The translations under genes and the position numbers were made by a program. Of a DNA stretch of 64,000 nt, positions 2,854-23,600 are shown piece after piece (positions within the stretch are counted from its first letter, which is position 1; every line of letters starts with the position of its first letter). Source of the DNA: a virus (lineage: Duplodnaviria > Caudoviricetes); the IMG/VR virus record IMGVR_UViG_3300032290_001086. One strand, 5' to 3'. Below the pieces are notes generated by a model that did no database searches, was not told the origin of the DNA, and worked only from the letters and a program-made list of their open reading frames with translations.

Positions 2854-3080
2854 AACCAACTGAAGCAGGATTTGATGGAGAAAAAGGTTTAAACCTTAAT
2901 ATGTCACATCTGCCCAATGGGGGAATATATAAACTGCGACGTGGTTCTACTCCTCCATGGACATTTAATTCTAATTTTAGAAATCAATTGATGTGGCAAC
3001 AAACAACACCACCTAGACTTTTATATTGTAACTCAGACAACCTGTGGTTTGAATTGGACTTTATTCCTATAGAAACATGA
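2850..3080 (+). CDS. hypothetical phage protein
   Basis: ATGA overlaps at both ends. Confidence 0.55.
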   Translation: MKPTEAGFDGEKGLNLNMSHLPNGGIYKLRRGSTPPWTFNSNFRNQLMWQQTTPPRLLYCNSDNLWFELDFIPIET

Positions 3081-3430
3081 TTCCTCTCATAAACAAATGG
3101 ATAATCGGATTTAAACCGATTAGATATACTGCATTCTGGTATTGGTATCGTTTGTGTTGTCATGATGATTATCGACTCGATGATAGACATTTGTGTGCAG
3201 ATTTCTGGTATCAATTAAACTATGGCTGGTGGACTATGGAATATGATACATTCATTGAAAATACTAATGAAAGTGATATGTTCATAAGTTCTCCTGATGA
3301 GATTCCAGAGACCATCTACTTGACAGAGGAGGCTTTTGACTCTATGATGGAGAAGATAAACAACCCAGCCCCACCCACGCCATTTCTACGCCAACTACTC
3401 TCTCGACCTGCACCTTGGGACAATGACTGA
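3077..3430 (+). CDS. hypothetical phage protein
   Basis: ORF with ATGA overlap. Confidence 0.6.
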   Translation: MIPLINKWIIGFKPIRYTAFWYWYRLCCHDDYRLDDRHLCADFWYQLNYGWWTMEYDTFIENTNESDMFISSPDEIPETIYLTEEAFDSMMEKINNPAPPTPFLRQLLSRPAPWDND

Positions 3431-4954: not shown

Positions 4955-5445
4955 TTATGATGTGTGGCATTCCTTGTTCAGGTAAGTCTACCTACATTCG
5001 CAGGGGAGTTGAGAATACAGATTACTTTGATGAATATGTAATTCTCTCTACCGATAATTACATTGAGAATATTGCAAAAGAAAACAACACAACTTACAAT
5101 GAAATCTTTCAAGATGTGATTGAAGAAGCTACAGTTAAAATGTACCAAGACCTTGACCTTGCTATTCAGCGAGGCAAATCAATTATCTGGGACCAAACAA
5201 ATCTATCTAAGAAAACTCGCAAGAAGAAACTTAAAAAGATTCCATGTGAATATACTAAAACTGCAATAATTCTTCCTCTTACTCTTGAAGAAGCTTTCAT
5301 TCGCAATTCGCAAAGAGCGAATAAGTTTATTGCACGTTCTGTTATTCATCGCATGTATCATCAATTTGAACTTCCAACTGAAGATGAAGGATTTGATGTT
5401 ATCATGACTCATGATGGTTCTCATCTTAAGATGGAAGTTGCTTGA
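4945..5445 (+). CDS. P-loop polynucleotide 5'-kinase (PseT/Pnk N-terminal-like, AAA_33)
   Basis: Walker A GIPCSGKST, DQTN motif, lid arginines (RNSQR); directly downstream of the RNA ligase. Confidence 0.8.
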   Translation: MELIMMCGIPCSGKSTYIRRGVENTDYFDEYVILSTDNYIENIAKENNTTYNEIFQDVIEEATVKMYQDLDLAIQRGKSIIWDQTNLSKKTRKKKLKKIPCEYTKTAIILPLTLEEAFIRNSQRANKFIARSVIHRMYHQFELPTEDEGFDVIMTHDGSHLKMEVA

Positions 5446-5822: not shown

Positions 5823-6270
5823 AGAAAAATGTATTATTTTTGACCTAGATGGTACTCTATGCGATGTGACAAATCGTAGACAATTTGTTGCAACCAAACC
5901 TCGTAACTGGGACGCATGGAATAAAGGTATCTCTAATGATAAACCTATAAAGCAAGTGCTTGCAATTTTTCATGCATTGAAGTATTTCTATGCTGTTTTC
6001 TTTGTGAGTGGCCGTTCTGATGATTATCGGAATGTAACTCTTGAATGGTTTGAAAAGCATAGTATCATGGATGATGATTATAATGGTCTATACATGAGAA
6101 AGTATCAAGACCATCGTGATGATGCTATTGTAAAGGCAGAAATTGCGAATGAAATTGAAAAACAGTATCAAATCTTTGCAGTCTTTGATGACCGTAAAAG
6201 AGTATTGACAATGTGGCAGGAGCGTGGTATATTTACTTTTGATGTCTCCCAAGGTAAAGGTGATTTCTAA
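5797..6270 (+). CDS. HAD-family polynucleotide 3'-phosphatase (PseT C-terminal-like)
   Basis: DLDGT, VSGR, LYMR..D.R.D..VK and FDDR motifs typical of the PNKP phosphatase domain. Confidence 0.85.
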   Translation: MDFSTNTPKEKCIIFDLDGTLCDVTNRRQFVATKPRNWDAWNKGISNDKPIKQVLAIFHALKYFYAVFFVSGRSDDYRNVTLEWFEKHSIMDDDYNGLYMRKYQDHRDDAIVKAEIANEIEKQYQIFAVFDDRKRVLTMWQERGIFTFDVSQGKGDF

Positions 6271-12342: not shown

Positions 12343-12953
12343 AAAGTATTCGCTTCATTGGTGATGTTCATGGTAACTGGAAAAGATACAAGAAAATCAT
12401 CAATGAATGCGATACTTCGATTCAGGTTGGTGATTTTGGTGTAGGATTCTCTGGTCATTCAAACCCACCACATGACCACATGAACAAGGGCAACCACAAG
12501 TTTATTCGTGGTAATCATGATAATCCAAATGTATGCCAAATGCATCCATTTTGGATACCAGATGGTACTATGATTCATGATAAGATATTCTGTATTGGTG
12601 GTGCCAAATCTATTGATGCACACATGAGAACAGAAGGGTTGAACTGGTGGAATGATGAAGAGTTGTCGTATGCTCAGTTTCTCAAGTTGTGCGATGAGTA
12701 TGAAAAACTGAAGCCAGAAGTAGTAGTAGCACATGAAATGCCAGAGAGCTTAACATACATAGTGTGCTCCAAGTGTAATCTTACGAAATATGACGATAAA
12801 TCTATCACTCGTCAATTTCTTGATAATCTACTGGAGATACACAGACCAGATTTATTCATTCATGGACATTGGCATGTTGACCACCATACTATCTTCAATG
12901 GTGTTGAATATATTGGTCTGGGTGAGTTAAATTTTATAGACTTAGAGTTATGA
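12339..12953 (+). CDS. calcineurin-like metallophosphoesterase
   Basis: GDVHG, GDFG, RGNHD, AH and HGHWH motifs. Confidence 0.9.
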   Translation: MKSIRFIGDVHGNWKRYKKIINECDTSIQVGDFGVGFSGHSNPPHDHMNKGNHKFIRGNHDNPNVCQMHPFWIPDGTMIHDKIFCIGGAKSIDAHMRTEGLNWWNDEELSYAQFLKLCDEYEKLKPEVVVAHEMPESLTYIVCSKCNLTKYDDKSITRQFLDNLLEIHRPDLFIHGHWHVDHHTIFNGVEYIGLGELNFIDLEL

Positions 12954-13094
12954 ACAACGAAGACTGGACTAATCTCAATAACATGCACAAAGAGTTGACA
13001 ACTAACCACTTAGCAGCTTATGATACGGCATATCTTGAGAAGTATGCAGAACTTCTTGCAAAATCACTTGAAGGGAAAGGAGACCCACATCATA

Positions 13095-13316
13095 ATGACA
13101 GAAACTGATTATTCTATTTTTCTCTCTCATACAAATGCTATGCAGAGAATGGAACAATTCAATAAACGTGCAGTGAAGGCTAAAACCCATAAAACAATGT
13201 ACAAACACTTTCGCAATGCTGATGCAGTCTATGCAGAGTATCGTGAACTGATTGAAGAAGAACCAAACTACATTACACTTTGTCTCGACCACATCGAAGG
13301 TATCATCAATGATTGA
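13095..13316 (+). CDS. hypothetical protein (start uncertain, 13095 or 13140)
   Basis: ORF 13020..13316 trimmed. Confidence 0.5.
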   Translation: MTETDYSIFLSHTNAMQRMEQFNKRAVKAKTHKTMYKHFRNADAVYAEYRELIEEEPNYITLCLDHIEGIIND

Positions 13317-13494
13317 ATCCACTACTTTTCCCACTGACATTAACGCTGTTGCAGCTGTTGCTGGTTTGGCTGGTGCTCTGGTTGTGATTGTTTATTCTTT
13401 CACACGGAATCATCAGTATGAAATGCGGAAACGTTCCGCACGTATCAGCAAAGCTAATGAGTCAGAGGTTGACTTCCCACCACAAATCGGTTAA
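13309..13494 (+). CDS. small membrane protein
   Basis: MIESTTF.. with TM segment AVAAVAGLAGALVVIVYSF. Confidence 0.55.
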   Translation: MIESTTFPTDINAVAAVAGLAGALVVIVYSFTRNHQYEMRKRSARISKANESEVDFPPQIG

Positions 13495-13497
13495 TCT
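13444..13497 (+). promoter_or_regulatory. early promoter with LysR-type operator
   Basis: ATCAG-CAAAG-CTAAT, 10 bp, TTGACT-17 bp-TAATCT; ATG 54 nt after the -35 start. Confidence 0.7.
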
Positions 13498-13522
13498 ACA
13501 AAGGTAGTCAAGGGAACACCCC

Positions 13523-13780
13523 ATGAACGACATCATCACACTCACACCAGTCAAGCCACAGTTTCGTGAGGTGTACCATTACACCACCAGCCGCTGGGAT
13601 TGGCAAGATGGCAATGTGAATCAAATGTGGATTGAAGAGGTGGATGAGGGACAATACGTTGCCATCGCCCACAATCCAGCAAAAGGTGCTAGTATGGTGA
13701 TGTCGAACCCTCGTGGCTACCATGCCACTCTAGAGTGGGTTCGTAAGTTCTGTGCTTCATTCTGCATTCTTCCTGTTTGA
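13523..13780 (+). CDS. hypothetical early protein
   Basis: ORF directly after a promoter cassette. Confidence 0.7.
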   Translation: MNDIITLTPVKPQFREVYHYTTSRWDWQDGNVNQMWIEEVDEGQYVAIAHNPAKGASMVMSNPRGYHATLEWVRKFCASFCILPV

Positions 13781-13782
13781 TT

Positions 13783-13959
13783 ATGAAACCTTATCCACTT
13801 GGCATTGATAATCCATATCGGATTATACAAGAAATGAGTTCAACCAACTGGTCAATTTATCGAAGAGATTCATTTCAAAAGATTGCAACCTTTAAGTCAC
13901 AATATGATGCCTATGATGCTCGTCGTGCTATTCTCAAATCAGAAGGATACAACGCATGA
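13783..13959 (+). CDS. hypothetical protein (MKPYPLGIDNP..)
   Basis: ORF 13777..13959 trimmed to the ATG. Confidence 0.6.
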   Translation: MKPYPLGIDNPYRIIQEMSSTNWSIYRRDSFQKIATFKSQYDAYDARRAILKSEGYNA

Positions 13960-14111
13960 AACATCTACCATGGATTGTATGTGGATTGAGTGTTATCATT
14001 GGATGGAATGTACTTGCAGTCCTTCGTGATACCAAATCCATTGATATACAATATCGAACAGTACACCAGTTGTACTGTGCCAAACACCCACAACATCATC
14101 ACTGCAAATGA
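13956..14111 (+). CDS. small hypothetical membrane protein (51 aa)
   Basis: ATGA overlaps at both ends; not in the ORF track. Confidence 0.55.
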   Translation: MKHLPWIVCGLSVIIGWNVLAVLRDTKSIDIQYRTVHQLYCAKHPQHHHCK

Positions 14112-14374
14112 ACTTTACTGAACTGAACTTTGAGCCTCACGGGATTAAAGATGGTATTCAAGCCAAACATTTCTTTGAAAATGGTTATGGTGTATCAGTA
14201 GTTAAGTTTCCTGGTAGCTATGGCTTTGAAGAAGATTTGTATGAAGTAGCCATTCTTCAAGGCACAGAAGATGACTGGAGTATCACTTACGAAACACCAA
14301 TCACTGATGATGTATTAGGTCATCGTGATGACGAAGACATTAACATTATTCTAGAAGAGGTACAAGCACTATGA
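14108..14374 (+). CDS. hypothetical phage protein (FENGYGVSVV..GSYG..LYEVAIL family)
   Basis: Motif pattern I recognise from many tailed phages. Confidence 0.7.
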   Translation: MNFTELNFEPHGIKDGIQAKHFFENGYGVSVVKFPGSYGFEEDLYEVAILQGTEDDWSITYETPITDDVLGHRDDEDINIILEEVQAL

Positions 14375-14453
14375 CTAAATCCTATCACAACAATCCAAAG
14401 CCCAAGACTATTAAAATCTTTGGTACACTTCATACATATACCAAGCCAGCCAA

Positions 14454-14511
14454 GACCAGTTGAACCACTGGCACACTGAGCAAACACCAGGGGCAGCTTT
14501 GCCCCTATACT
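14454..14511 (+). promoter_or_regulatory. early promoter with upstream CCAGT-N6-ACTGG palindrome
   Basis: GACCAGTTGAACCACTGGCACA, then GC hairpin GGGGCA..TGCCCC and -10 TATACT (14506). Confidence 0.65.
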
Positions 14512-14538
14512 GATTTCAGTTCAAACAACACCACTCCA

Positions 14539-14997
14539 ATGGGAACTCGCTCTCGCATCGGCATCGAACTCCAGGACCGCTCCATCGTTTCCGTGTATTG
14601 TCACTGGGATGGCCATCCTGAGTTCAATGGTAAAGTGCTGAAGAAGCATTACACCACCAAAGACTCCGTGATGGAACTCATTGATGGTGGTTCTATGTCT
14701 AGTCTCCGCACTCGTGGAACTTGGAATCATGGTCGCACTCTCAAAGATGATAAAGGAGAGCACATTGTAGATTCTGAAGGGTTTATCATGTCTGAAAATG
14801 ACCGTAACCCTCAACCACTGTATCATACAGAGCGTGGTGAAGAAATCAATGTAGAACACACCAGCAAGAGAAAAGTTCTATCTGGTAAACTTGGCAGTGA
14901 AGAATATGTTTATATCTTCACTCAAAAGAACCAGTGGAAAGCTTACAAGATTGGCTGGGGTGAAACCAACACGCACGAGGTACAGATTCCAAACTGA
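14539..14997 (+). CDS. conserved hypothetical phage protein (MGTRSRIG..YCHWDG family)
   Basis: Characteristic N-terminal motif. Confidence 0.75.
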   Translation: MGTRSRIGIELQDRSIVSVYCHWDGHPEFNGKVLKKHYTTKDSVMELIDGGSMSSLRTRGTWNHGRTLKDDKGEHIVDSEGFIMSENDRNPQPLYHTERGEEINVEHTSKRKVLSGKLGSEEYVYIFTQKNQWKAYKIGWGETNTHEVQIPN

Positions 14998-15003
14998 CCC
15001 TCC

Positions 15004-15027
15004 AGCCCCCAATCAAGGGGGCTTTTC
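15004..15027 (+). terminator. Rho-independent terminator
   Basis: AGCCCCC-AATCAA-GGGGGCT-TTT. Confidence 0.75.
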
Positions 15028-15060
15028 TCTAAAATAAATAGAGTTTCCCCTAAACAAGCC

Positions 15061-15189
15061 ATGAACACTCCAAATTGGCAACACCACTCAAACAAACCCA
15101 AAACAACCAAAGGAACCTGCAAAGGAAAGCTCAAAGCTCGCAAACAATCACTGAACCATCTCAAAAATAAATTGATGAAAACCAAGTAA
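15061..15189 (+). CDS. small basic protein (42 aa, MNTPNWQHHS..)
   Basis: ORF downstream of late-type ATAAATA (15034-15040); not in the ORF track. Confidence 0.6.
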   Translation: MNTPNWQHHSNKPKTTKGTCKGKLKARKQSLNHLKNKLMKTK

Positions 15190-15275
15190 TTAAGGTCAAA
15201 AAACATCACTTTTTTGAGCTTAAATTGCCTAAGTGACCCCAGTGTTCCTTCTATGTAATTTAACATTCAAAACTC

Positions 15276-15845
15276 ATGAAACAAATCATTCCAGCAGTCA
15301 TGCCACCACTGCTACCTGAAGAAAAGCAACTGCTCACAAACAAGTCAGTGTATTCGGGAGAATCGTGTACAAGCGAAGTAATGAAATATTGCCAGATGAA
15401 AAGTCTCAATACTGCAGTACCACATATTGATGAAGGAGTTGATTTGTTGATTGAAATGAGTAGAAATAGTTGGCTTTCTGCTCAGGTGAAAAAGATTTCA
15501 TATCGTGTTGAAAAGGGAAAGTCGAGATATGCATTTAAGTTTCAAAGTGAAACAAGCAATTACTCCGAAAAGGATATTGATGTATTCTATCATGTACTAA
15601 TGACACATTATAGAACACTCATCTGGAGGTCTGATTCAAAGCATGTTCCCAGGAGAAATGATGGAGGCTTCGTAAAGAATACAAATTTAATTTTAGATAG
15701 ACCAAAGGCTAAACTAACATCAAGCACAAAATGTCAATTTCAAGAAAAGCCTGAGTTAATCTATCAAGTATATCATCCATTGGTTATTATTAAGAATCTA
15801 CAATTCTTTAATCCATCCAGTACACCAATAGAACAATATCTATGA
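15276..15845 (+). CDS. putative PD-(D/E)XK endonuclease (I-Ssp6803I-like)
   Basis: GE..V...P..DEGVDLLI....AQVKK...Y...DIDVF pattern. Confidence 0.6.
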   Translation: MKQIIPAVMPPLLPEEKQLLTNKSVYSGESCTSEVMKYCQMKSLNTAVPHIDEGVDLLIEMSRNSWLSAQVKKISYRVEKGKSRYAFKFQSETSNYSEKDIDVFYHVLMTHYRTLIWRSDSKHVPRRNDGGFVKNTNLILDRPKAKLTSSTKCQFQEKPELIYQVYHPLVIIKNLQFFNPSSTPIEQYL

Positions 15846-16024
15846 ATAAGGAAGAGAAAGAAACTTTAAGAATAGAGTTTGCTAAGATAGCACTTACACA
15901 GTTAGCAAGTAATGTAATAGAAAAGAATTTCCAGACAGCAGCATCACAAGCAGAGATGGAACCTGATGAGTTGATAGCAGCATATTGTTGGCAGATAGCA
16001 GACTCAATGATGAAGTATATGTAG
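15842..16024 (+). CDS. hypothetical protein
   Basis: ATGA overlap; LR.EFA..AL...CWQIADSMM pattern. Confidence 0.6.
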   Translation: MNKEEKETLRIEFAKIALTQLASNVIEKNFQTAASQAEMEPDELIAAYCWQIADSMMKYM

Positions 16025-16120
16025 TTCCGCATAGTTTTCCACAAGGCTGTGGAAAAAGTAGTATAATTATTAACAATTATTAAATGTAATAAAAAATATA
16101 GTTGAGAGATGTATGTAGAG

Positions 16121-16176
16121 AGAGAATTATTAAGTATATACTGTATAAAGAGATAATTATTAAGTATATACTGTAT
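16121..16176 (+). repeat. AT-rich direct repeat, 30-bp period
   Basis: AGA(G/T)AATTATTAAGTATATACTGTAT at 16121 and 16151. Confidence 0.9.
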
Positions 16177-16237
16177 GTGTCCGAGGGTGTCAGAGAAAGT
16201 ATCTGAAATGTACGGAGGTGCAGCAGTCTTGGCGAGC

Positions 16238-16266
16238 ATTATATCATCACTCGGCCAATTTGTCAA
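16238..16266 (-). promoter_or_regulatory. perfect-consensus sigma70 promoter, minus strand
   Basis: Reverse complement TTGACA-AATTGGCCGAGTGATGA (17 bp)-TATAAT. Confidence 0.85.
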
Positions 16267-16428
16267 GCCCCCAGTCCCAAAAAACCCATAAGGATTCCAA
16301 ATCATTCCGAGACCACCCATAAGGAATCCATATATAAGGACTTCAAATCACTCAGAGCCCCTTCGATAGTTTTCCACAGGGCTGTGGAAAACCTGGGGAA
16401 AACTATTATTAACAATTATTAACTATAC

Positions 16429-16457
16429 TTGACACACATCCCGAATATGTGTATAAT
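16429..16457 (+). promoter_or_regulatory. perfect-consensus sigma70 promoter
   Basis: TTGACA-17 bp-TATAAT. Confidence 0.85.
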
Positions 16458-16513
16458 GACTCTGTTAGGGGTGACAAATTATTATTAATTATTAACTATA
16501 CATCATATCATAC

Positions 16514-16567
16514 ATAAGCAACACTAATCAAAGACCCCTTGACAACCTCAGAGAAACCCCCTATAGT
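16514..16567 (+). promoter_or_regulatory. early promoter with LysR-type operator
   Basis: ATAAG-CAACA-CTAAT, 10 bp, TTGACA-17 bp-TATAGT. Confidence 0.75.
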
Positions 16568-16590
16568 GAACACGTTCACACATTGAACCC

Positions 16591-16764
16591 ATGAAATTCT
16601 CCCTCGACTCAAAGTTTCTTTACATAGGAGCTAATACTAGGGCAAAAACAGGTGATGAACAATTTGGAATTAGTATTGGTAAGTATTACTTTGGTCTATA
16701 TGATAACAGGCCATGTGCAGGTAAGCTTAACAAGTATGGTGCATTAGATATTAACAATAAGTAA
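16591..16764 (+). CDS. small hypothetical protein (57 aa, MKFSLDSKFLYIG..)
   Basis: ORF directly after a promoter; not in the ORF track. Confidence 0.6.
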   Translation: MKFSLDSKFLYIGANTRAKTGDEQFGISIGKYYFGLYDNRPCAGKLNKYGALDINNK

Positions 16765-16770
16765 ATTATT

Positions 16771-16977
16771 ATGCTTACAATGAACTATTCTGATTTGGTA
16801 CAATTCTTTCAAACTAAATCCATGCAACAAGATGAGATGATTGATTGTATTACTGCACAACTGTATAACAATAATTATAGTTTATTGGAAAAGATTATTG
16901 AGGAGTATGTGTTAGGTTTAAATGAAGAAGAATTGAATACATTAGAACATTTTATCAATACTAATCTCACTGATTAG
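16771..16977 (+). CDS. hypothetical protein
   Basis: ORF. Confidence 0.55.
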   Translation: MLTMNYSDLVQFFQTKSMQQDEMIDCITAQLYNNNYSLLEKIIEEYVLGLNEEELNTLEHFINTNLTD

Positions 16978-17027
16978 TAACACTAATGGTTCAGGGGGTT
17001 GACTTCTGACCAAATCCCTGCCATACT
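16973..17027 (+). promoter_or_regulatory. early promoter with LysR-type operator
   Basis: ATTAG-TAACA-CTAAT, 11 bp, TTGACT-17 bp-(TG)CATACT. Confidence 0.75.
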
Positions 17028-17052
17028 GAACTCGTTCACTACTGAACCACCC

Positions 17053-17229
17053 ATGGACAACTACTTCAACCAGAAGATTGTTGAGCGTCACGATGAGCAC
17101 TTTTGGCTCAACAATAGCATGGCAGAATGTTATGATTTCTGTCTTGGTATTGCTACTGGTATGCTGGATGATTCTGATTGTGTCTGGTATTATGAACAGA
17201 AAAAGTCTCACATTTGCTATGATGTATGA
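17053..17229 (+). CDS. small hypothetical early protein
   Basis: ATG 54 nt after the -35; the ORF track's TTG start is the -35 box. Confidence 0.65.
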   Translation: MDNYFNQKIVERHDEHFWLNNSMAECYDFCLGIATGMLDDSDCVWYYEQKKSHICYDV

Positions 17230-17232
17230 TTG

Positions 17233-17287
17233 ATAAGCAACCCTAATCAATCAGGGGGTTGACACCAGCCCCCATCCATGCCAAACT
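17233..17287 (+). promoter_or_regulatory. early promoter with LysR-type operator
   Basis: ATAAG-CAACC-CTAAT, 11 bp, TTGACA-17 bp-(TG)CAAACT; leader GTTCACTACTGAACCACCCATGG identical to the previous cassette. Confidence 0.75.
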
Positions 17288-17312
17288 ACGTTTGTTCACT
17301 ACTGAACCACCC

Positions 17313-17444
17313 ATGGAAAACTTCAACGACTTTGTTGACCTTGAAGCCGAAATTTACGATTGGCAGGATGACATTCTTGTTCCTGCTGATGATGTAAACG
17401 AAGAAACTTTTCTTCAATTTGTAAACTCTAAATTCGATTTCTGA
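17313..17444 (+). CDS. small highly acidic early protein
   Basis: ATG 54 nt after the -35; D/E-rich, 43 aa. Confidence 0.6.
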   Translation: MENFNDFVDLEAEIYDWQDDILVPADDVNEETFLQFVNSKFDF

Positions 17445-17451
17445 AATTATT

Positions 17452-17586
17452 ATGTCTAAAGAAGTTCTCGTTTCAATGCTAAGCAAAGGTCAGAATGGTA
17501 ATGAAATTCTCACCATTCTCGACATGATTGTAGGCTCTGATGATACAAACTCTACAGAGCCTACACTAGAAGAAATCGACTTCTGA
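17452..17586 (+). CDS. small hypothetical protein (44 aa, MSKEVLVSMLSKGQNGNEIL..)
   Basis: Fills the gap; not in the ORF track. Confidence 0.6.
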   Translation: MSKEVLVSMLSKGQNGNEILTILDMIVGSDDTNSTEPTLEEIDF

Positions 17587-17639
17587 TTAGCATTCCTAAT
17601 CAATCGGGGGTTGACAACTCAACCCCCATCCTGTAAATT
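17586..17639 (+). promoter_or_regulatory. early promoter with LysR-type operator
   Basis: ATTAG-CATTC-CTAAT, 10 bp, TTGACA-17 bp-TAAATT; GGGGTTGA..TCAACCCC hairpin over the -35. Confidence 0.75.
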
Positions 17640-17664
17640 ATCATTGTTAATTCAAAGAAACATC

Positions 17665-17928
17665 ATGACTATTGCAATTTCCCCCGTTCACCGTCAGTTT
17701 ACCAAGGAACAATCCAGCGCCATTCACTCTATCACTGTAGATGGTACTGATGTTGTAGTTATCTGGCACAACAATGTAGACAAAGCCTATGCTTTCACCT
17801 GCAGTGAGAACTATGCACAATTCCTCAGCGATTTGCTCACCAATGATGCAATGCTAGAAAAGGTTAGCATTGGTTCTACAATTGCAGACGGTCGAAAGAC
17901 TGACGAACTGCAGCAGGTGACTGTCTGA
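17665..17928 (+). CDS. hypothetical early protein
   Basis: ATG 54 nt after the -35. Confidence 0.7.
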   Translation: MTIAISPVHRQFTKEQSSAIHSITVDGTDVVVIWHNNVDKAYAFTCSENYAQFLSDLLTNDAMLEKVSIGSTIADGRKTDELQQVTV

Positions 17929-18049
17929 TATGATTCTGGGGGCTTCACCAGCCCCCACCAAACAAACATTACAAATTGTAAATGTCTGGAATCATTCTCT
18001 TTCTTTTTGCTCTAGCATTGTTTCGTAGTTTTGAAAGAAAGTTTCTCTA

Positions 18050-18241
18050 ATGGACACCATGATTTCAGTCAAGCCTATCTCAAAGAAAGCCAAAAACAGG
18101 TTCGCTAATGTAATGGAATCATGTGAACTTTGCATTGTAGAACAACACAAAGGAGATAAAGTCTTCCTGCGTAGTCTAAATGGCAGGAACTTCTTCTGGG
18201 TTAATGTACATAAAGACCAGGATTGGCTGCTGGAGATGTAA
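18050..18241 (+). CDS. hypothetical cyanophage protein (V.PISKKAKNRFAN.M family)
   Basis: ORF after an 8-2-8 repeat promoter. Confidence 0.7.
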   Translation: MDTMISVKPISKKAKNRFANVMESCELCIVEQHKGDKVFLRSLNGRNFFWVNVHKDQDWLLEM

Positions 18242-18242
18242 T

Positions 18243-18294
18243 ATTTCATTTTGTTACAAGGGTGGGCTCCAGGGCTCACCCGATGCTGTAGGAT
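18243..18294 (+). promoter_or_regulatory. early promoter with HLR1-like direct repeat
   Basis: ATTTCATT-TT-GTTACAAG, GC hairpin, -10 TAGGAT (18289). Confidence 0.6.
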
Positions 18295-18317
18295 TCTGAG
18301 GCAGTCGCAACCGACCA

Positions 18318-18563
18318 ATGCTCACCACCGAACACCTCCCTGGAATCGGACCCGATGCTAGCCAGGCCACCATCGCCGCCGAAATGTTTCGGGTCAGGGC
18401 TGGGGCCAAGCAGGCTCAGCTAGAGCAGGATGAGACCCTAGTGTGGGTGGAAGGCCACCTAATCACCACAGCCCAGTGGGAGCAGTTTAAGACTGACCGC
18501 TTCCACAAGTGGCACAGCGAGGGCTGGGTGATGAGCATGGACCACTGGGTAACCCAGCATTAA
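18318..18563 (+). CDS. hypothetical early protein
   Basis: GC-rich ORF after a promoter. Confidence 0.7.
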   Translation: MLTTEHLPGIGPDASQATIAAEMFRVRAGAKQAQLEQDETLVWVEGHLITTAQWEQFKTDRFHKWHSEGWVMSMDHWVTQH

Positions 18564-18607
18564 GTTTTGTAACAGGGGCCAATTCTGGCCCCACCATCCT
18601 GTAGAAT
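18559..18607 (+). promoter_or_regulatory. early promoter with HLR1-like direct repeat
   Basis: ATTAAGTT-TT-GTAACAGG, hairpin GGGGCCA..TGGCCCC, -10 TAGAAT (18602). Confidence 0.6.
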
Positions 18608-18633
18608 TCTCTCAAGTTCACCACCCCGAACCG

Positions 18634-19302
18634 ATGAACACTGCACTCACCCTGGTTTCCAGCAACGCCAAGACTGGCCCCATCCCCACCAGCACCAGCA
18701 GCCGTGAGACCTGCCCTGCAACCTGCCCTTTCTACAATAAAGGTTGCTACGCTAAATCTGGCCCCCAAAACATTCACTGGAAGAAAGTTACTGAGGGTGA
18801 GCGAGGTGTAAACTTTCAGGAGTTTACTTCTGCAGTTCGTAAACTCCAGCGTGGCCAACTCTGGCGCCACAATGTATCTGGTGACCTCCCCCACGTTCTG
18901 GGTGACATTAATGCTCCCATGGTATCTGCACTGGCTGATGCAAACAAAGGCCGCAAAGGGTATACCTACACCCACCACGTTCTCAACAGCCACAACCTGG
19001 AAGTAATCAAAGAAGCTAACTCTAAAGGCTTCACAATCAATGCTTCCACTGAGGATGTTGAGGTGGCTGATGCTATCATGACTGAGCACAACATTCCTGC
19101 AGTTGCTGTTGTCAAGTCTGACAAAACCGAACGATTCTACAAAACAGAATCAGGTCGTAAAGTTATCACCTGCCCCGCTACGATTCATGAAAACGTAACG
19201 TGTGCAACTTGTGGCCTTTGTGCAAAGGCTGATCGTGACTTTATCATTGCATTTCCTGCACATGGTAATGCTAAGAAAACAGTCAACGAAATCGTAGCCT
19301 AA
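18634..19302 (+). CDS. Cys-rich putative metal/Fe-S protein (GP88-like)
   Basis: SNAKTG..TCPATCPF...GCYA, RHNVSGD, YTYTH, CPA..TCATCGLC motifs. Confidence 0.7.
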   Translation: MNTALTLVSSNAKTGPIPTSTSSRETCPATCPFYNKGCYAKSGPQNIHWKKVTEGERGVNFQEFTSAVRKLQRGQLWRHNVSGDLPHVLGDINAPMVSALADANKGRKGYTYTHHVLNSHNLEVIKEANSKGFTINASTEDVEVADAIMTEHNIPAVAVVKSDKTERFYKTESGRKVITCPATIHENVTCATCGLCAKADRDFIIAFPAHGNAKKTVNEIVA

Positions 19303-19311
19303 AGTATAATT

Positions 19312-19372
19312 ATTTCAGTTTGTTACAAGTCGGGTCTGGGGGATCGACACCCCCCACCCGATGGTCTACAAT
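19312..19372 (+). promoter_or_regulatory. early promoter with HLR1-like direct repeat
   Basis: ATTTCAGT-TT-GTTACAAG; TCGACA (19344)-17 bp-TACAAT. Confidence 0.65.
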
Positions 19373-19416
19373 ACATTCACGGGGGCGAGAGAAGCCCCCA
19401 CCACTTTCCGAGAATC

Positions 19417-19731
19417 ATGACCCGCTCCGACCGTCTGACCAGCACCAGCATCCCCACCGTGGTGGCTGTGGCCGTGGCCCGTGTGACCATTCGCCACGCC
19501 CAGGTGATTGGCCGCCACCGTGCTCAGTGGCTGTTTGACCTGGCCACCTCTGAGACTGCTCTCAAGGCTGAGCGCCAGCTGGGCCGCAAGGCTCTCCAGG
19601 TTGCCGCCGATGCAGCAGGCCGCAGTTCCGTCACCTTGGCCGATGGCCGCACCATCGGGGACCGTGTGTTCAGCAAGGCCAGCAACCGCAGGCTCCGCAA
19701 CTGGAGCCAGGACCGCAACACCCCTGTGTGA
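19417..19731 (+). CDS. hypothetical basic early protein
   Basis: GC3-rich ORF after a promoter. Confidence 0.7.
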   Translation: MTRSDRLTSTSIPTVVAVAVARVTIRHAQVIGRHRAQWLFDLATSETALKAERQLGRKALQVAADAAGRSSVTLADGRTIGDRVFSKASNRRLRNWSQDRNTPV

Positions 19732-19788
19732 CGGATTGTGAACATTCGGGCCAGCCAGCCACAGCTGGCCCTTCCTAGCCTGTAGAAT
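19728..19788 (+). promoter_or_regulatory. early promoter with degenerate 8-2-8 repeat
   Basis: GTGACGGA-TT-GTGAACAT; -10 TAGAAT (19783). Confidence 0.5.
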
Positions 19789-19813
19789 TACAGAGTCAAC
19801 CGAACCGAGACCG

Positions 19814-19990
19814 ATGCCCGCCACCGTCACCCTGACCGCAGCAGAAGCCACCATCGCCCGCCAGATGGTGATGTCTGGTCTGATTGCTGCAGACCACAAC
19901 AACGGACGCCATCAGCCCTGGCAGCTGCTAATGGAACGGGCCGAAGCCGAAGCCCTTCTGGCCAAGCTGCTGGGCAGCACCGCCGACTGA
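19814..19990 (+). CDS. small hypothetical early protein (58 aa, MPATVTLTAAEATIARQ..)
   Basis: GC3-rich ORF after a promoter; not in the ORF track. Confidence 0.65.
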   Translation: MPATVTLTAAEATIARQMVMSGLIAADHNNGRHQPWQLLMERAEAEALLAKLLGSTAD

Positions 19991-20190
19991 TAAGCTCAAC
20001 GGGGGGCTGAGTCCCCCCATCCATCAGCAGTTCTGATACATCAGCAGTCCTAATGGGAGCAGTGGGCAGTTATAAGGGCCGTTTATGTCCCGCCCCCCGT
20101 GGCCCGTATTAAAAGTGTTGGGTCCCAGTAAGCTATAAAACTTTGAAATCGACTGATATATAGTTAATCAACCCAAAAATTTTTTCCGAA

Positions 20191-20270
20191 AACCTCCAAG
20201 GTCCTCCAAGGTCCTCCAAAATTCTTCAAGTTTGCCCCAAGTGACTCAAAAATTCTCCAAAATTGACACA
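20191..20270 (+). repeat. degenerate 10-bp tandem repeat
   Basis: aacctccaag/gtcctccaag/gtcctccaaa/attcttcaag/tttgccccaa/gtgactcaaa/aattctccaa. Confidence 0.8.
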
Positions 20271-20423
20271 AAAACAACAACATCCGAGGAATTTTCATAT
20301 ATTTTCATGACCATCAGAGAACTTTTGAAAATAATCGGACAAAATTTCACCGAAAAATTCAAAAAACACTGAAAAAAATCAAAAAATTTTTTTTTCATAT
20401 ATAATGTAAACATTTATACAATT

Positions 20424-20603
20424 ATGTCACCATTTTCTTGCACCACTGAAGTACAATTTGATGAAAAATCAGGTGATTACTTCGTTACATTCCCTGAAGA
20501 ACTCCTAGAAGAGATGCAATGGGTCGAAGGAGACACATTAGAATGGGAATTCTTTGAACATCATGATAGTCCAGGTATTCGTATACATAAAGTAGGAGAT
20601 TAG
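20424..20603 (+). CDS. AbrB/MazE-fold small protein (59 aa)
   Basis: GDYFVTFPEELLEEMQWVEGDTLEW is a swapped-hairpin signature; not in the ORF track. Confidence 0.75.
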   Translation: MSPFSCTTEVQFDEKSGDYFVTFPEELLEEMQWVEGDTLEWEFFEHHDSPGIRIHKVGD

Positions 20604-20614
20604 TTTACAAAAGT

Positions 20615-23600
20615 ATGGGTAATTGCAGGCCAAAAAAAGAAATAATTCAAAAAACGATAAGTCATTGGTATATTCCAACAGGACAAGCTCAGTATGTATC
20701 CTCTCCGAAAGCACCATTTGACTACAAAGTATGGCATGAAGTAGGGGGTCAGAATGATAATCTTAGACTTATTGGAAATGGCAGTAAATTAGAAAAGTTA
20801 TACAGAACTAGATTGTATTCACCACGAGGAGAGACTACCGATGGTGATGTAGACTACAATTGGGAATATGTATATCAGCAAAAATATGAAGTTAAGATCA
20901 TGGACAAAAATGATCTTAACGATAAAGAACTAGCACCACTTGAAGACCCTGAGAACGAATATACTATTCCTGGATATGATGGTGAAGGAGCATTTGAAGA
21001 TGGAGATCCCATCTACTACAACAAACCAATTTTTAAAAGACAGTGTAAAGCAAATACTGTTTATGATGAACAGTATTTTTATCATGTTTTTTATTGGCCC
21101 ACCACGAGCATCTCTGTAAGCAGAGCAGTCAATGGTATTATTAAGACTACTACCACAACTACTTCGTCTGGTGCAGGAGGTGGAGGTGGAGCAAGTACAA
21201 CTGTAATTACAGATACATATGCAGCTGCTCCAGGAACCGTTTCAGGAACCGTTTCAATACAAGGAGTTGCTAGTTCGGTAGAAAATCCTCCTGAAGGATT
21301 AATTTATTACCATGGTGGAAGTTTTGATGATAAAATGTTTTTTACATATGAACCAGATGCAAATAGTGATGGAACACTTAAAGTTATTGCTGAAGGAGAT
21401 ACTGTAAACGGATGGACTATCAGTAAAGTTGTTAACTACGTAACCGATAAAGCTCTCAGAAGAAGAGTATCAAAATATTCTAAGAGGAATAAAACTCCTT
21501 CTTATGTGTTTGTAAATGACTTAGTAGATCCTAAAGGAAAAGTAAGTAGCGTTTCAAGTTTACCTGCATCCTATGCTGGTAGTATTGATGACTATTACAT
21601 TGTTGATGACGATGAAGATACATTAAATCAATTATACTATCAATGGAATGGTACAGCTTGGACTGGTCCAGTAAATGTTACTGGTATTTTAGTTGGAGAT
21701 AAAGTAAAAGGCAAAGGAATTTCTAGTGGTACAACAGTAACTCAAATTAAAGGAAGAAAAATATTTCTAAGTAATTCCATTAGAAGTCGCAAAATACGTA
21801 AAGTTACTTTTGTAAATAATGTTGTAAACAAAGTAAATGCATCAACAGTTTGTTATGCAGAAATTTCTGGGGGAAGCTCAAACTTTACTAGAGATGGTAG
21901 CTACACCACCACAAACGGATGCAAGATTAAAGTTGTAGCAGGAAAAGGAATTCAAACTCGTTCTGCTATTGTAGGAGTTTATGCAGCAAGAAATAAGCGT
22001 TATCTAGAATATAGTCCTATTTTTTATACCAGAGATAATGATTGTGAAAAGATTTATATTGAAGACTCTAATGCAAAATACCTAATTGGAGATGTTATTC
22101 TTGAAGATGAAACACTATACTTAAATGATGTTGAACTAGTAGCAGAACCTAAAACAGATATTGCATACAGAATTAATAACATATACTGGAATAATTTTAA
22201 TATGCCAGTATCAAAAACAGAATTAGAAAATATTCTTAAAAAATATCCAGATGATAATAAATTTTTAGAATTGGAGCAATATGTTATTGATACAATTAAG
22301 GGATCATTAAATTCTAAAAAAGTATCAAGAGTATTAGATTCAACTTGTAATGATCCAATTTATCCTTCTGTTGAAAAAATATATTATCCATATGAAGAAC
22401 TGAATCAACTTCAAGATTCTTTTAGCTCACTTGTGAATAATACATCAGATCCTTGTTTAGATATTAAATCAAACGCTGCATTTACTACAGAAGAACTTCA
22501 ACAGTATATTAATACTAATCTTTCTAAAGTAATATCTTCTTCTTCAATGATATTACCAGAAGAAATGTATAAATTAGTAGTTTCTAATGAAAACTCAATG
22601 CTGAATAGATTAACATCTGCAGTTAGTACTATTGAGCAATCCGTTTCAAAAATTCAGCAAATTCCTAATCTTCCTCCTATGTTGGAGGGAGAAAATGAAG
22701 CTCCTATTAATTTGACTATTGAAACTATTCGCAGAATGCCACCCAAATTTGGAAATATAGAATTTTTAGTCAATGATGTTATATTTGATAGTGATAATAG
22801 TTTAAATCCAAATGCAGTTGAAAATAATCCATTTTTAACTATTAGATCTATACCTGTATTTACAGGTACATTTAGTTGTAATAATCCTGATATGACATTG
22901 AATACTGTTACTAAGACAGTAGGAACTATTACGAATGCAGTTGATTATGTAGAATTAACTAATGCTGCTCCACAACCACCGCCACCACCGCCACCAATTG
23001 CTGGATCTACTTCAACTTCTACTAGAGTTTGGGTTGAACCTGGACCAGAAGGAACTTTAGGAGCAAATGAAGATGATAACAAGCAATTTAGTAAACATAA
23101 AACTTGCACTGGTGCTAGACCATATCCAAACATAATTTGGAAATCTGAACTTAGTTATCAAACTAAATTTACTAAAATTGCAAATTTCAGAGTAAATGAA
23201 ATAAGTAATGCTGTTTCAGAAGCTCTTGCAAATAAAGGTAATCCATATCAGGATGATCCAGTATACGCAGAACTTTCCGAAGACATAACTTCATCCAGTA
23301 CTTCAATTAAGATTAAAGGTAGTACTGCAAACTTCATGAACAGTGGATATTTATTACTTCCAAAATTTGTTACAAAACAATCTGAATCTGATTTAAAAAA
23401 TTCATCAAAACATTATTATTATCTTGGCGAAGAGATTATTTACTATGGAAATAAAACTGCAAATTCATTTGAAAATTGTATTCGTGCTCAATTTGGAACA
23501 AACTCAACATTTGAAGTTATAGTTCCAGCTGGAGATATTGAAAGTGGATTTTTATATACAATTCAAACTATAGGCAATACTAATTGGTTAGAACTTGGTG

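Follow-up and report, generated by a model that had tools for sequence, protein, structure and literature searches.

A palindromic box at a fixed distance from early promoters of a T4-like cyanophage group is a candidate operator for the host regulator RbcR

We identify a 15-bp dyad, ATHAG-N5-CTAAT, set at a fixed distance upstream of the -35 hexamer of predicted early promoters in a T4-like cyanomyovirus, of which a stretch of 64 kb (hereafter the window) was analysed. As judged from sequence comparison, the dyad appears to be a protein operator incorporated in one class of early promoters, of the sigma-70 type, in one T4-like cyanomyovirus group, and its most likely binder is RbcR, the host's single conserved LysR-type regulator; we give these two statements jointly a probability of about 0.5. 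Because the same palindrome occurs at the phage early promoters and at the hosts' carboxysome/RuBisCO operon, RbcR has probably been borrowed by the virus. Picocyanobacteria account for much of the carbon fixed in aquatic environments, and infection by their T4-like phages redirects carbon metabolism. Little is understood of how early transcription starts in these phages and of how light and carbon status are tied to infection; a phage promoter class served by a host carbon-fixation regulator would, if true, be a concrete molecular link open to testing, for which S-CREM1 and Synechococcus CB0101 are a cultured pair.

In the window, ATHAG-N5-CTAAT gives 11 strand-hits, corresponding to 8 sites, against 0.86 expected, and none of 100 shuffles reaches 11 or more. 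The composite pattern CTAAT-N8..13-TTGAC has five matches in the 64 kb, all on the + strand and each with a gap of 10 or 11 bp, in agreement with the five boxed promoters that a preliminary description of this DNA had placed at 13444, 16514, 16973, 17233 and 17586. Downstream of each of these boxes stand TTGAC(A/T) and, after a 17-bp spacer, a hexamer resembling a -10, and a small ORF of 43-87 aa comes next. P1 (13444..13497; + strand, as are all features of the five promoters) carries the box ATCAGCAAAGCTAAT (13444-13458), a 10-bp gap, the -35 TTGACT (13469-13474), a 17-bp spacer and the -10 TAATCT (13492-13497), and its predicted target is an 85-aa ORF (13523-13780). P2 (16514..16567) carries the box ATAAGCAACACTAAT (16514-16528), identical copies of which occur in S-CREM1 and many viral contigs, with a 10-bp gap, the -35 TTGACA (16539-16544) and the -10 TATAGT (16562-16567), ahead of a predicted 57-aa target ORF (16591-16764). 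P3 (16961..17027) has the box ATTAGTAACACTAAT (16973-16987), an 11-bp gap, the -35 TTGACT (16999-17004) and the -10 CATACT (17022-17027), and its predicted target is a 58-aa ORF (17053-17229), whose S-PM2 homologue has another palindrome upstream. The TAG stop (16975-16977) of the ORF preceding P3 falls within the P3 box, and P3 is the one window promoter with an upstream CTAAT half-site (16961-16965), lying 22 bp ahead of the main box's right arm. P4 (17233..17287) consists of the box ATAAGCAACCCTAAT (17233-17247), an 11-bp gap, the -35 TTGACA (17259-17264) and the -10 CAAACT (17282-17287), with a predicted 43-aa target ORF (17313-17444), and P5 (17586..17639) of the box ATTAGCATTCCTAAT (17586-17600), a 10-bp gap, the -35 TTGACA (17611-17616) and the -10 TAAATT (17634-17639), with a predicted 87-aa target ORF (17665-17928). 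From this promoter geometry, the box centre lies at about -53. Hairpins enclosing the -35 are strong at P4 (G5/C5 stem, -15.8 kcal/mol, z -4.4) and P5 (9-bp stem, -16.9 kcal/mol, z -4.8), moderate at P3 and absent from P1 and P2.

All five boxes have the form AT.AG-N5-CTAAT; position 2 is T and position 14 is A, so that they contain the T-N11-A core and bear out the earlier claim of a fit to the LysR rule. The same description had the arms conserved and the spacer variable: the arms are indeed conserved, but the N5 spacer is restricted, and two subtypes prevail, ATAAGCAAC(A/G)CT(A/G)AT and ATTAGTATTACTAAT. The dyad also reaches beyond 15 bp into TG...CA flanks, with the extended form TGATNAGY-N3-RCTNATCA. 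The boxes do not fit a UP element, the alpha-CTD site whose consensus is an A/T-tract between -38 and -59, since the conserved positions form a dyad with G and C (ATNAG...CTNAT) and not A-tracts.

Two isolates, S-CREM1 and DSL-LC03, also carry the box-plus-promoter module, as do about 100 contigs of uncultured viruses. Its exact form ATAAGCAACRCTRAT-N10/11-TTGAC has matches in 97 viral-contig stretches, and 237 composite promoters were found in 91 further loci, 60 of which have genes in common with the window; in S-CREM1, DSL-LC03 and many IMG/VR contigs the module is conserved despite differing flanks. Nine phage loci contain 113 promoter-like TTGAC sites, a box scoring 8 bits or more stands at 44 of them, and the gap is 10 bp in 26 of these 44 promoters, 11 bp in 17 and 32 bp in one. 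In the same nine loci, permuted matrices give 0-2 such sites and the opposite strand gives 4, none of them at 10-11 bp. One complete genome (G001) has five clustered composite promoters, and another record (G003) has at least 10 exact boxes inside 6 kb. At least eight promoters of related phages have two boxes, the distal one 22-24 bp upstream of the proximal one.

The comparison with host boxes was an independent test set beforehand. In a set of Cyanobiaceae genomes that runs from Prochlorococcus to Cyanobium (30-65% GC), ATNAG-N5-CTNAT is present upstream of the csoS1-rbcL (carboxysome/RuBisCO) operon in 26/26 genomes, at -121 to -129 relative to the csoS1 start codon. The gap from this box to a conserved TTGAC is 43 bp in 25/26 genomes, and 16/26 also have a GTGAT half-site, 22 bp downstream of the box and 21 bp from the TTGAC. 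The host box is centred at about -86 and the phage box at about -53, whereas the helical face is the same (gaps of 10.5, 21, 32 and 43 bp). The right arm is preferentially CTAAT or CTGAT in the phage and mostly CTTAT in hosts, where the position is degenerate. We trained a weight matrix on the host boxes alone and ran it over the 64-kb window, and all five phage boxes are among its top six matches; the observed fifth or sixth best score was reached in 0/500 shuffles. The P4 box is the top match in the window (18.5-20.3 bits), and the boxes of P5, P2 and P1 score 16.8-18.1, 14.6-17.6 and 13.9-14.2 bits, respectively. The phage geometry is not used in host genomes, where 61 genomes give 6 matches against 3 control matches. 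The host-side result stands independently of the phage, as a dyad strictly conserved 43 bp upstream of the carboxysome-operon -35 from Prochlorococcus to Cyanobium, and, as far as we have found, this putative RbcR operator, conserved at the cso operon of alpha-cyanobacteria, is newly defined here.

Several observations point to RbcR as the reader of this box. Each host genome has one strong LysR regulator; its sequence identity within the family is 79-96%, and Prochlorococcus records call it 'RuBisCO operon transcriptional regulator'. Its best Synechocystis match shares 69% identity with it, compared with 32-33% for the other two Synechocystis LysR proteins, and the host-box matrix finds two sites upstream of Synechocystis rbcL. 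The textbook position of a LysR recognition site is near -65. According to a review (PMC13249358), the published Synechocystis RbcR motif is ATTA(G/A)-N5-(C/T)TAAT (Bolay 2022), as the preliminary description had given it; repression by RbcR is reported when it binds near the start of transcription (PMC13249358), and an activating position at about -90 is reported for Synechocystis. This consensus is matched exactly by the boxes at 16973 and 17586, and those at 13444, 16514 and 17233 deviate at position 3 alone, with C or A in place of T; host boxes are degenerate there as well. The phage box, at about -53, occupies neither of the usual activating positions (about -65, or about -90 for Synechocystis RbcR). 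Because the literature searched holds no picocyanobacterial RbcR footprint, the binding of RbcR to the host cso box is itself something we infer. The earlier proposal that the phage uses the host carbon-fixation activator is partly supported, through the shared box type (26/26 at csoS1-rbcL) and the recovery of the phage boxes by the host matrix; RbcR binding, activation of early genes and titration are predictions.

The two layouts suggest how such a promoter may work. RbcR would recognise the same dyad before the host csoS1-rbcL operon, where the putative strong site lies 43 bp and a weak half-site 21 bp upstream of the -35. In the phage, 10-11 bp separate the presumed strong dyad from the -35, and a second dyad is found at 32-33 bp in some promoters; the phage arrangement could be the host layout shifted by one helical turn towards the promoter, so that the strong site is the one next to RNA polymerase. 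LysR operators pair a recognition with an activation site some two helical turns apart, and the double-box spacing in phages, which is that of the host, would suit a LysR tetramer binding as two dimers. RbcR sitting at about -53 would help to recruit RNA polymerase to the early genes once the DNA enters the cell, possibly with no need for a co-inducer, and the many phage copies of the box could pull RbcR off the host operon. The sign of the effect is likewise presumed; the phage -35 hexamers match the consensus already and might do without an activator. The fullest form of this reading is that a widespread T4-like cyanophage group, probably freshwater or estuarine, has wired its first-expressed genes to RbcR through a high-affinity cso-type operator one helical turn from the -35, with early infection reading the carbon-fixation state and hundreds of replicated copies stripping RbcR from the carboxysome/RuBisCO operon; we regard it as tentative, and somewhat doubtful as a whole.

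The dyad could instead be the operator of a protein other than RbcR, either a small unrecognised regulator encoded by the phage or delivered with the virion, or another host factor, which might coordinate the early cassettes or switch them off, and might act on the host cso promoter too. The -53 position, the 17-bp tandem arrays described below and the strong conservation of the spacers are atypical of a classic LysR site, and the spacer conservation in the phage subtypes could point to another reader. S-PM2 and Syn9 have no such box, the Syn9 genome containing zero ATNAG-N5-CTAAT, and carry the palindrome GTGACA-N10-TGNCAC at equivalent places, which suggests that each lineage has its own regulator. 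Known folds are missing from most early ORFs, and small ORFan phage proteins could be the binder. However, this explanation needs a coincidence, as the operator matches the host carboxysome dyad in arms, spacing and flanks and also matches the published RbcR motif, and promoters active right after injection require a factor that is already there. No LysR helix-turn-helix is encoded in the whole records G001, S-CREM1 and DSL-LC03 or in the partial contigs G003 and G005, and 0/20 small early ORFs give a meaningful Pfam match, to LysR or to any other Pfam DNA-binding domain. We consider a non-RbcR reader unlikely, though it deserves serious attention.

It is also conceivable, at distinctly long odds, that RbcR binds the boxes and that these serve mainly as decoys drawing it off the carboxysome/RuBisCO operon, or as a brake or sensor that links early transcription to carbon or light. 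The early region ends in conserved arrays without a promoter (20023-20086 and homologues), G001 and G003 have several boxes per genome against essentially one strong host site, at the cso operon, and both the consensus -35 hexamers and the repression reported near the transcription start (PMC13249358) would suit such a role. Against this, 43 of the 44 promoter boxes stand at one helix-phased distance from the -35, which fits contact with RNA polymerase better, and carboxysomes probably persist for long compared with a lytic cycle, so that transcriptional titration may matter little. That no protein reads the box is very improbable; it would then be kept within a mobile promoter-terminator cassette of the PeSL (promoter-early stem-loop) kind, spread by recombination, and because its clustered stop codons (TGA, TAA, TAG) end the upstream gene. 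The cassettes do resemble PeSLs (PMC4122927), since small ORFs of a variable region are preceded in both by a sigma-70 promoter with a stem-loop, and upstream ORFs terminate in or at the box (TAG 16975-16977, TGA 17584-17586). Yet conservation is dyad-shaped, the arms and gap length being fixed while the gap sequence, hairpin and flanks vary; two of the five window promoters have no hairpin, and the orphan arrays, the 22-bp double boxes and the match to the host cso box would be left unexplained.

With RbcR as the preferred binder, the phage boxes share with RbcR/CbbR-type LysR operators of cyanobacterial RuBisCO and CCM genes a 15-bp dyad and a T-N11-A core, and layouts with two sites 22 bp apart occur at some phage promoters. 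They differ in their viral location, in a dyad at about -53 instead of about -86 to -90 that is paired with a consensus -35, and in their many copies per genome and promoter-less arrays. The 2016 ISME J study of Doron et al. is said to describe a non-T4-like 'novel regulatory element' that controls early genes in Syn9 and related marine T4-like cyanophages; since the Syn9 genome has no ATNAG-N5-CTAAT, that element is not the same sequence element as the box. Sites of host nutrient or metabolic regulators before a T4-like cyanophage's own genes, of which the box is a candidate example, have been predicted for NtcA in 16 cyanomyoviruses (PMC3037559) and validated by gel shift for PhoB (Pho boxes) in S-PM2d (PMC10976474). 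The NtcA and PhoB sites are scattered before metabolic and replication genes, whereas the box belongs to a repeated early-promoter cassette with strict geometry and, as proposed, to another regulator and another signal, carbon fixation; if true, RbcR would be the third host regulator exploited by cyanophages, after NtcA and PhoB. The PeSL cassettes of T4-type phages (PMC2839356, PMC4122927) are likewise repeated units of a sigma-70-like promoter and a stem-loop before small ORFs in a variable region, a definition (PMC4122927) that covers the window cassettes, and they share the G-run/C-run stems, as in RB49 and phi1. They have a generic AT-rich upstream tract where the window promoters have a specific dyad at a fixed distance, and the window stem-loop, which two of the five promoters lack, encloses the -35.

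Other box-like sites occur in the window. The tandem sites reported earlier at 20023 and 20040 are present and are joined by a third at 20072, so that an orphan array on the + strand (20023..20086) consists of ATCAGCAGTTCTGAT (20023), ATCAGCAGTCCTAAT (20040) and ATAAGGGCCGTTTAT (20072), spaced by 17 and 32 bp and without a -35. The last early gene and a GC hairpin lie before it, and the baseplate module comes after it. Homologous arrays of two to five boxes with the same 17- or 32-bp spacing are found in the loci L277, L278, L279 and L002, and the array is kept at the same genomic position in four related phages. The three ATAAG-N5-CA(A/T)AT variants noted earlier near 16300 (16288, 16319 and 16334, spanning 16288..16348, no strand assigned) are present but weak, at about 5-7.5 bits against 13-20 for the promoter boxes. 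The first of them, at 16288, is 21 bp from a minus-strand TTGACA (16266-16261), and the counterparts of these degenerate boxes in relatives adjoin full boxes; their function is uncertain. The sites at 34474 and 40297, within structural genes, look like chance matches. A possible sixth site on the + strand (3284..3348; 16.5-16.9 bits) is intragenic, within the ORF at 3077-3430, and has the box ATAAGTTCTCCTGAT (3284-3298), a 21-bp gap, TTGACA (3320-3325), a 17-bp spacer and TATGAT (3343-3348).

The window is a portion of a T4-like cyanomyovirus, with genes for an RNA ligase, a P-loop kinase, a UvsW-like helicase and a phosphoesterase in its first 13 kb, a small-ORF cluster at 13.4-20 kb, and baseplate, head-closure, terminase, sheath, portal and scaffold genes from 20.6 kb onward. 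DNA-level matches to known Synechococcus phages (DSL-LC03, S-CREM1 and S-PM2) are only patchy, Pfam gave no meaningful match for 20 small early ORFs, and Rfam gave no credible match for 12500-20700. The palindrome ATHAG-N5-CTAAT (the box), described previously upstream of early -35 hexamers, gives 11 strand-hits in the window versus 0.86 expected. Its fixed distance from the -35 is confirmed, as CTAAT-N8..13-TTGAC occurs exactly five times in the window, only on the + strand and with a gap of 10 or 11 bp, the boxes lying at 13444 (P1), 16514 (P2), 16973 (P3), 17233 (P4) and 17586 (P5). Downstream of every box come TTGAC(A/T), a -10-like hexamer (TAATCT, TATAGT, CATACT, CAAACT or TAAATT) set off from it by a 17-bp spacer, and an ORF of 43-87 aa; we refer to a box joined to such a TTGAC promoter as a composite promoter. 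The dyad is prolonged outward by TG...CA flanks. A strong G-run/C-run hairpin encloses the -35 at P4 and P5 (-15.8 and -16.9 kcal/mol), is weaker at P3 and is absent at P1 and P2, so the constant feature is the box and not the hairpin. The preliminary description also took the arms as fixed and the N5 as free, which does not hold for the N5, where two subtypes dominate, ATAAGCAAC(A/G)CT(A/G)AT and ATTAGTATTACTAAT. Two upstream small ORFs have their stop codons (16975-16977 and 17584-17586) inside or directly against the left arm of the box (TGATTAG, TGATAAG), and the operator thus doubles as a gene end.

We reached the host side through the phage psbA gene, the nearest match of which is in Cyanobium, and collected the rbcL loci of 31 genomes of the family of Cyanobium. 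ATNAG-N5-CTNAT is found at -121 to -129 from the start codon of csoS1, at the head of the carboxysome/RuBisCO operon, in all 26 genomes in which csoS1 could be located, most commonly as ATAAG-N5-CTTAT, and as ATAAGCAATACTAAT and ATCAGCAACGCTGAT in one genome each. A conserved TTGAC(G/T) follows the host box after 43 bp in 25 of the 26, the sole exception arising from an overlapping TTGAC, and a conserved GTGAT half-site ends 21 bp ahead of TTGAC in 16 of the 26. Because these genomes span from ~30% to 65% GC and the flanks of the box have diverged, the host box is under selection. When the 26 host boxes were made into a symmetrised matrix, the five phage boxes were all among its six best-scoring sites in the entire window, and none of 500 shuffles attained the observed fifth or sixth best score. 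Across 61 host genomes, counts of the strict ATTAG-N5-CTAAT are near the control level and carry no information, and the phage geometry gives six matches versus three in the control, indicating that it is unused in host genomes. The surroundings of the host LysR gene yielded no box, and there is hence no sign of autoregulation. The carboxysome promoter as a whole is strikingly conserved from Prochlorococcus to Cyanobium in these upstream regions (L236-L262, 26 Cyanobiaceae), comprising the dyad, GTGAT 22 bp downstream, TTGAC(G/T) 43 bp past the dyad, a GCATTG-like -10 and a conserved leader, CGAACATTCCACCC.

A loose-pattern scan of viral contigs returned, among the matches listed, mostly single chance matches, and only contigs with several matches were informative; several contigs carry 2-5 composite promoters apiece among those listed. 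At least three composite promoters are present in the isolate S-CREM1, whose host is Synechococcus sp. CB0101, with boxes at 5053, 12005 and 14282 in its locus L120, and two in DSL-LC03. In G001, a complete relative of 172 kb, five form a cluster at 12.6-16.3 kb and two isolated matches lie elsewhere. In a pattern-free test, we collected from nine phage loci all promoter-like TTGAC-N16-18-(-10) sites that lie on the coding strand and applied the matrix built from host sequences only to the 0-34 bp upstream of each, calling a site boxed at 8 bits or more. The results show that 44 of the 113 sites are boxed, with gaps of 10 bp (26 sites), 11 bp (17) and 32 bp (1), and the best gap is evenly scattered in the remaining 69. 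Permuted matrices gave 0-2 boxed sites, and the opposite strand gave four with scattered gaps. The matrix search also surfaced the right arms CTGAT and CTTAT, which are absent from the pattern of the preliminary description. Viral contigs contain 97 stretches with the highly specific module ATAAGCAACRCTRAT-N10/11-TTGAC, against ~1 that we estimate for chance. A total of 237 composite promoters is present in 91 newly fetched loci, and 60 of these loci have genes in common with the window, most often the helicase. The box is a conserved element.

Further copies of the box are present in the window. The tandem sites reported at 20023 and 20040 are present and have a third member at 20072, and a promoter-less array of 2-5 boxes with 17- and 32-bp spacing occupies the equivalent place in four relatives, past the last GC-rich early gene and ahead of the baseplate module. 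In the gap ahead of the first baseplate-module gene (20190-20270), CTCCAA-like repeats also recur with a 10-bp period (ctccaaggtc, ctccaaggtc, ctccaaaatt, cttcaagttt and further). The three variants reported at 16288-16348 proved weak, and their counterparts in relatives adjoin full boxes. An additional strong box at 3284 (16.5-16.9 bits with the host matrix) lies within the ORF at 3077-3430, 21 bp ahead of TTGACA-17-TATGAT; box and promoter together span 3284-3348 and may mark an internal promoter for the genes toward the RNA ligase.

We compared the geometry of the phage and host promoters. Assuming a 17-bp spacer and a start site ~7 nt past the -10, the phage box is centred at about -53, the host dyad at about -86 and the host half-site at about -64. 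The gaps seen (10-11, 21, 32-33 and 43 bp) all fall on a single helix face. A second box lies 22-24 bp upstream of the proximal one in at least eight promoters of related phages, the same spacing as between the host dyad and half-site, and P3 has a CTAAT half-site at this position. From these centres, gaps and spacings, the phage layout looks like a host layout that has been displaced toward the promoter by one turn, the strong site now being the proximal one.

The box is confined to part of the cyanomyoviruses searched. A direct search of the Syn9 genome found no boxes, the box is not enriched in S-PM2, and the early region of S-PM2 has zero boxed sites in the same matrix test. In S-PM2, the homologue of the P3 gene and the gene that follows both have a different upstream palindrome, GTGACA-N10-TG(T/G)CAC (5914-5935 and 6171-6192 in the S-PM2 locus L001), followed by a G5/C5 hairpin promoter. 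This palindrome occurs four times in S-PM2 and twice in Syn9, with none in controls, and is found in neither G001 nor S-CREM1.

Nearly every genome of the host family encodes exactly one strong LysR protein, and the small, Prochlorococcus-size genomes encode no other. This protein is 79-96% identical family-wide, and Prochlorococcus records call it the 'RuBisCO operon transcriptional regulator'; no NCBIfam model is specific for RbcR, and the protein scores under every equivalog cut-off. Its best match in Synechocystis salina is 69% identical, the other two LysR proteins there being 32-33% identical, and upstream of rbcL in this species the host matrix picks out a pair of CTAAT-type sites separated by 32 bp. 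Among other operators compared with the box, the Fur 7-1-7 and LexA box motifs were rejected on arm sequence or spacing. The same holds for NdhR (ATAG-N8-CTAT; PMC13249358), CmpR (TTA-N7/8-TAA; PMC13249358) and NtcA (GTA-N8-TAC; PMC3037559). The RbcR motif given in the preliminary description agrees with the published ATTA(G/A)-N5-(C/T)TAAT (2026 review, PMC13249358), and RbcR is reported to act as an activator from ~90 nt upstream of the start site and as a repressor from ~10 nt (PMC13249358). RbcR is the LysR regulator listed for Prochlorococcus MED4 (PMC6778093), and a preprint infers its control of the csoS1-3/rbcLS module (bioRxiv 10.64898/2026.04.15.718746); we found no published RbcR operator in these picocyanobacteria.

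One promoter class therefore has a protein-type dyad at a fixed distance from its -35. This dyad is widespread in one cyanomyovirus group and matches the dyad that is conserved at the host carboxysome operon. Mere homology of the promoter cassettes could spread such an element among related phages, but it accounts poorly for the dyad-shaped conservation and for the host match. A phage protein, or a host protein other than RbcR, could be the binder; no LysR HTH is encoded by the box-bearing phages examined. The boxes might also serve as decoys or sensors, a role for which the promoter-less arrays speak and against which the fixed distance to the -35 speaks. We infer that RbcR would bind both the phage box and the host dyad and, on the phage side, would aid RNA polymerase at promoters that are probably early, because they are of sigma-70 type and lie in the small-ORF region. 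The strong proximal site may further free activation from the co-inducer, and the many box copies and arrays may titrate RbcR. The original observation thus stands, and its RbcR interpretation is partly supported, being strengthened by the independent host evidence; a cultured phage-host pair is available for testing it. Use of host regulators by cyanophages has been predicted or known for NtcA (PMC3037559), and exploitation of PhoB was supported by gel shifts (PMC10976474). T4-type phages also carry PeSLs, repeated cassettes of a promoter and a stem-loop (PMC4122927). We did not find an RbcR-type box as a fixed part of early-promoter cassettes in the searchable literature, and the S-CREM1 genome paper does not discuss promoters.

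Other elements neighbour the boxes. A 53%-GC module at 18240-19800 has a second promoter class, with TTGTTACAA or TTGTAACA-like elements, a GC hairpin in the spacer and then TGTAGAAT or TGTAGGAT, preceding four or five consecutive small genes including that of a DUF7227 protein (18634-19302); this class may resemble RpaB/HLR1 direct repeats. At 16030-16500, the palindrome TTTTCCACA-N4-TGTGGAAAA, which is like the cyanobacterial DnaA box, occurs twice (~16037 and 16372), alongside ATTATTAAC direct repeats, a 30-bp AT-rich repeat and divergent perfect TTGACA-17-TATAAT promoters at 16429 (+) and 16266 (-). In two high-GC host genomes (L218 and L230), single ATTAG-N5-CTAAT sites adjoin TGTGGAAAA or TTTCCACA words.
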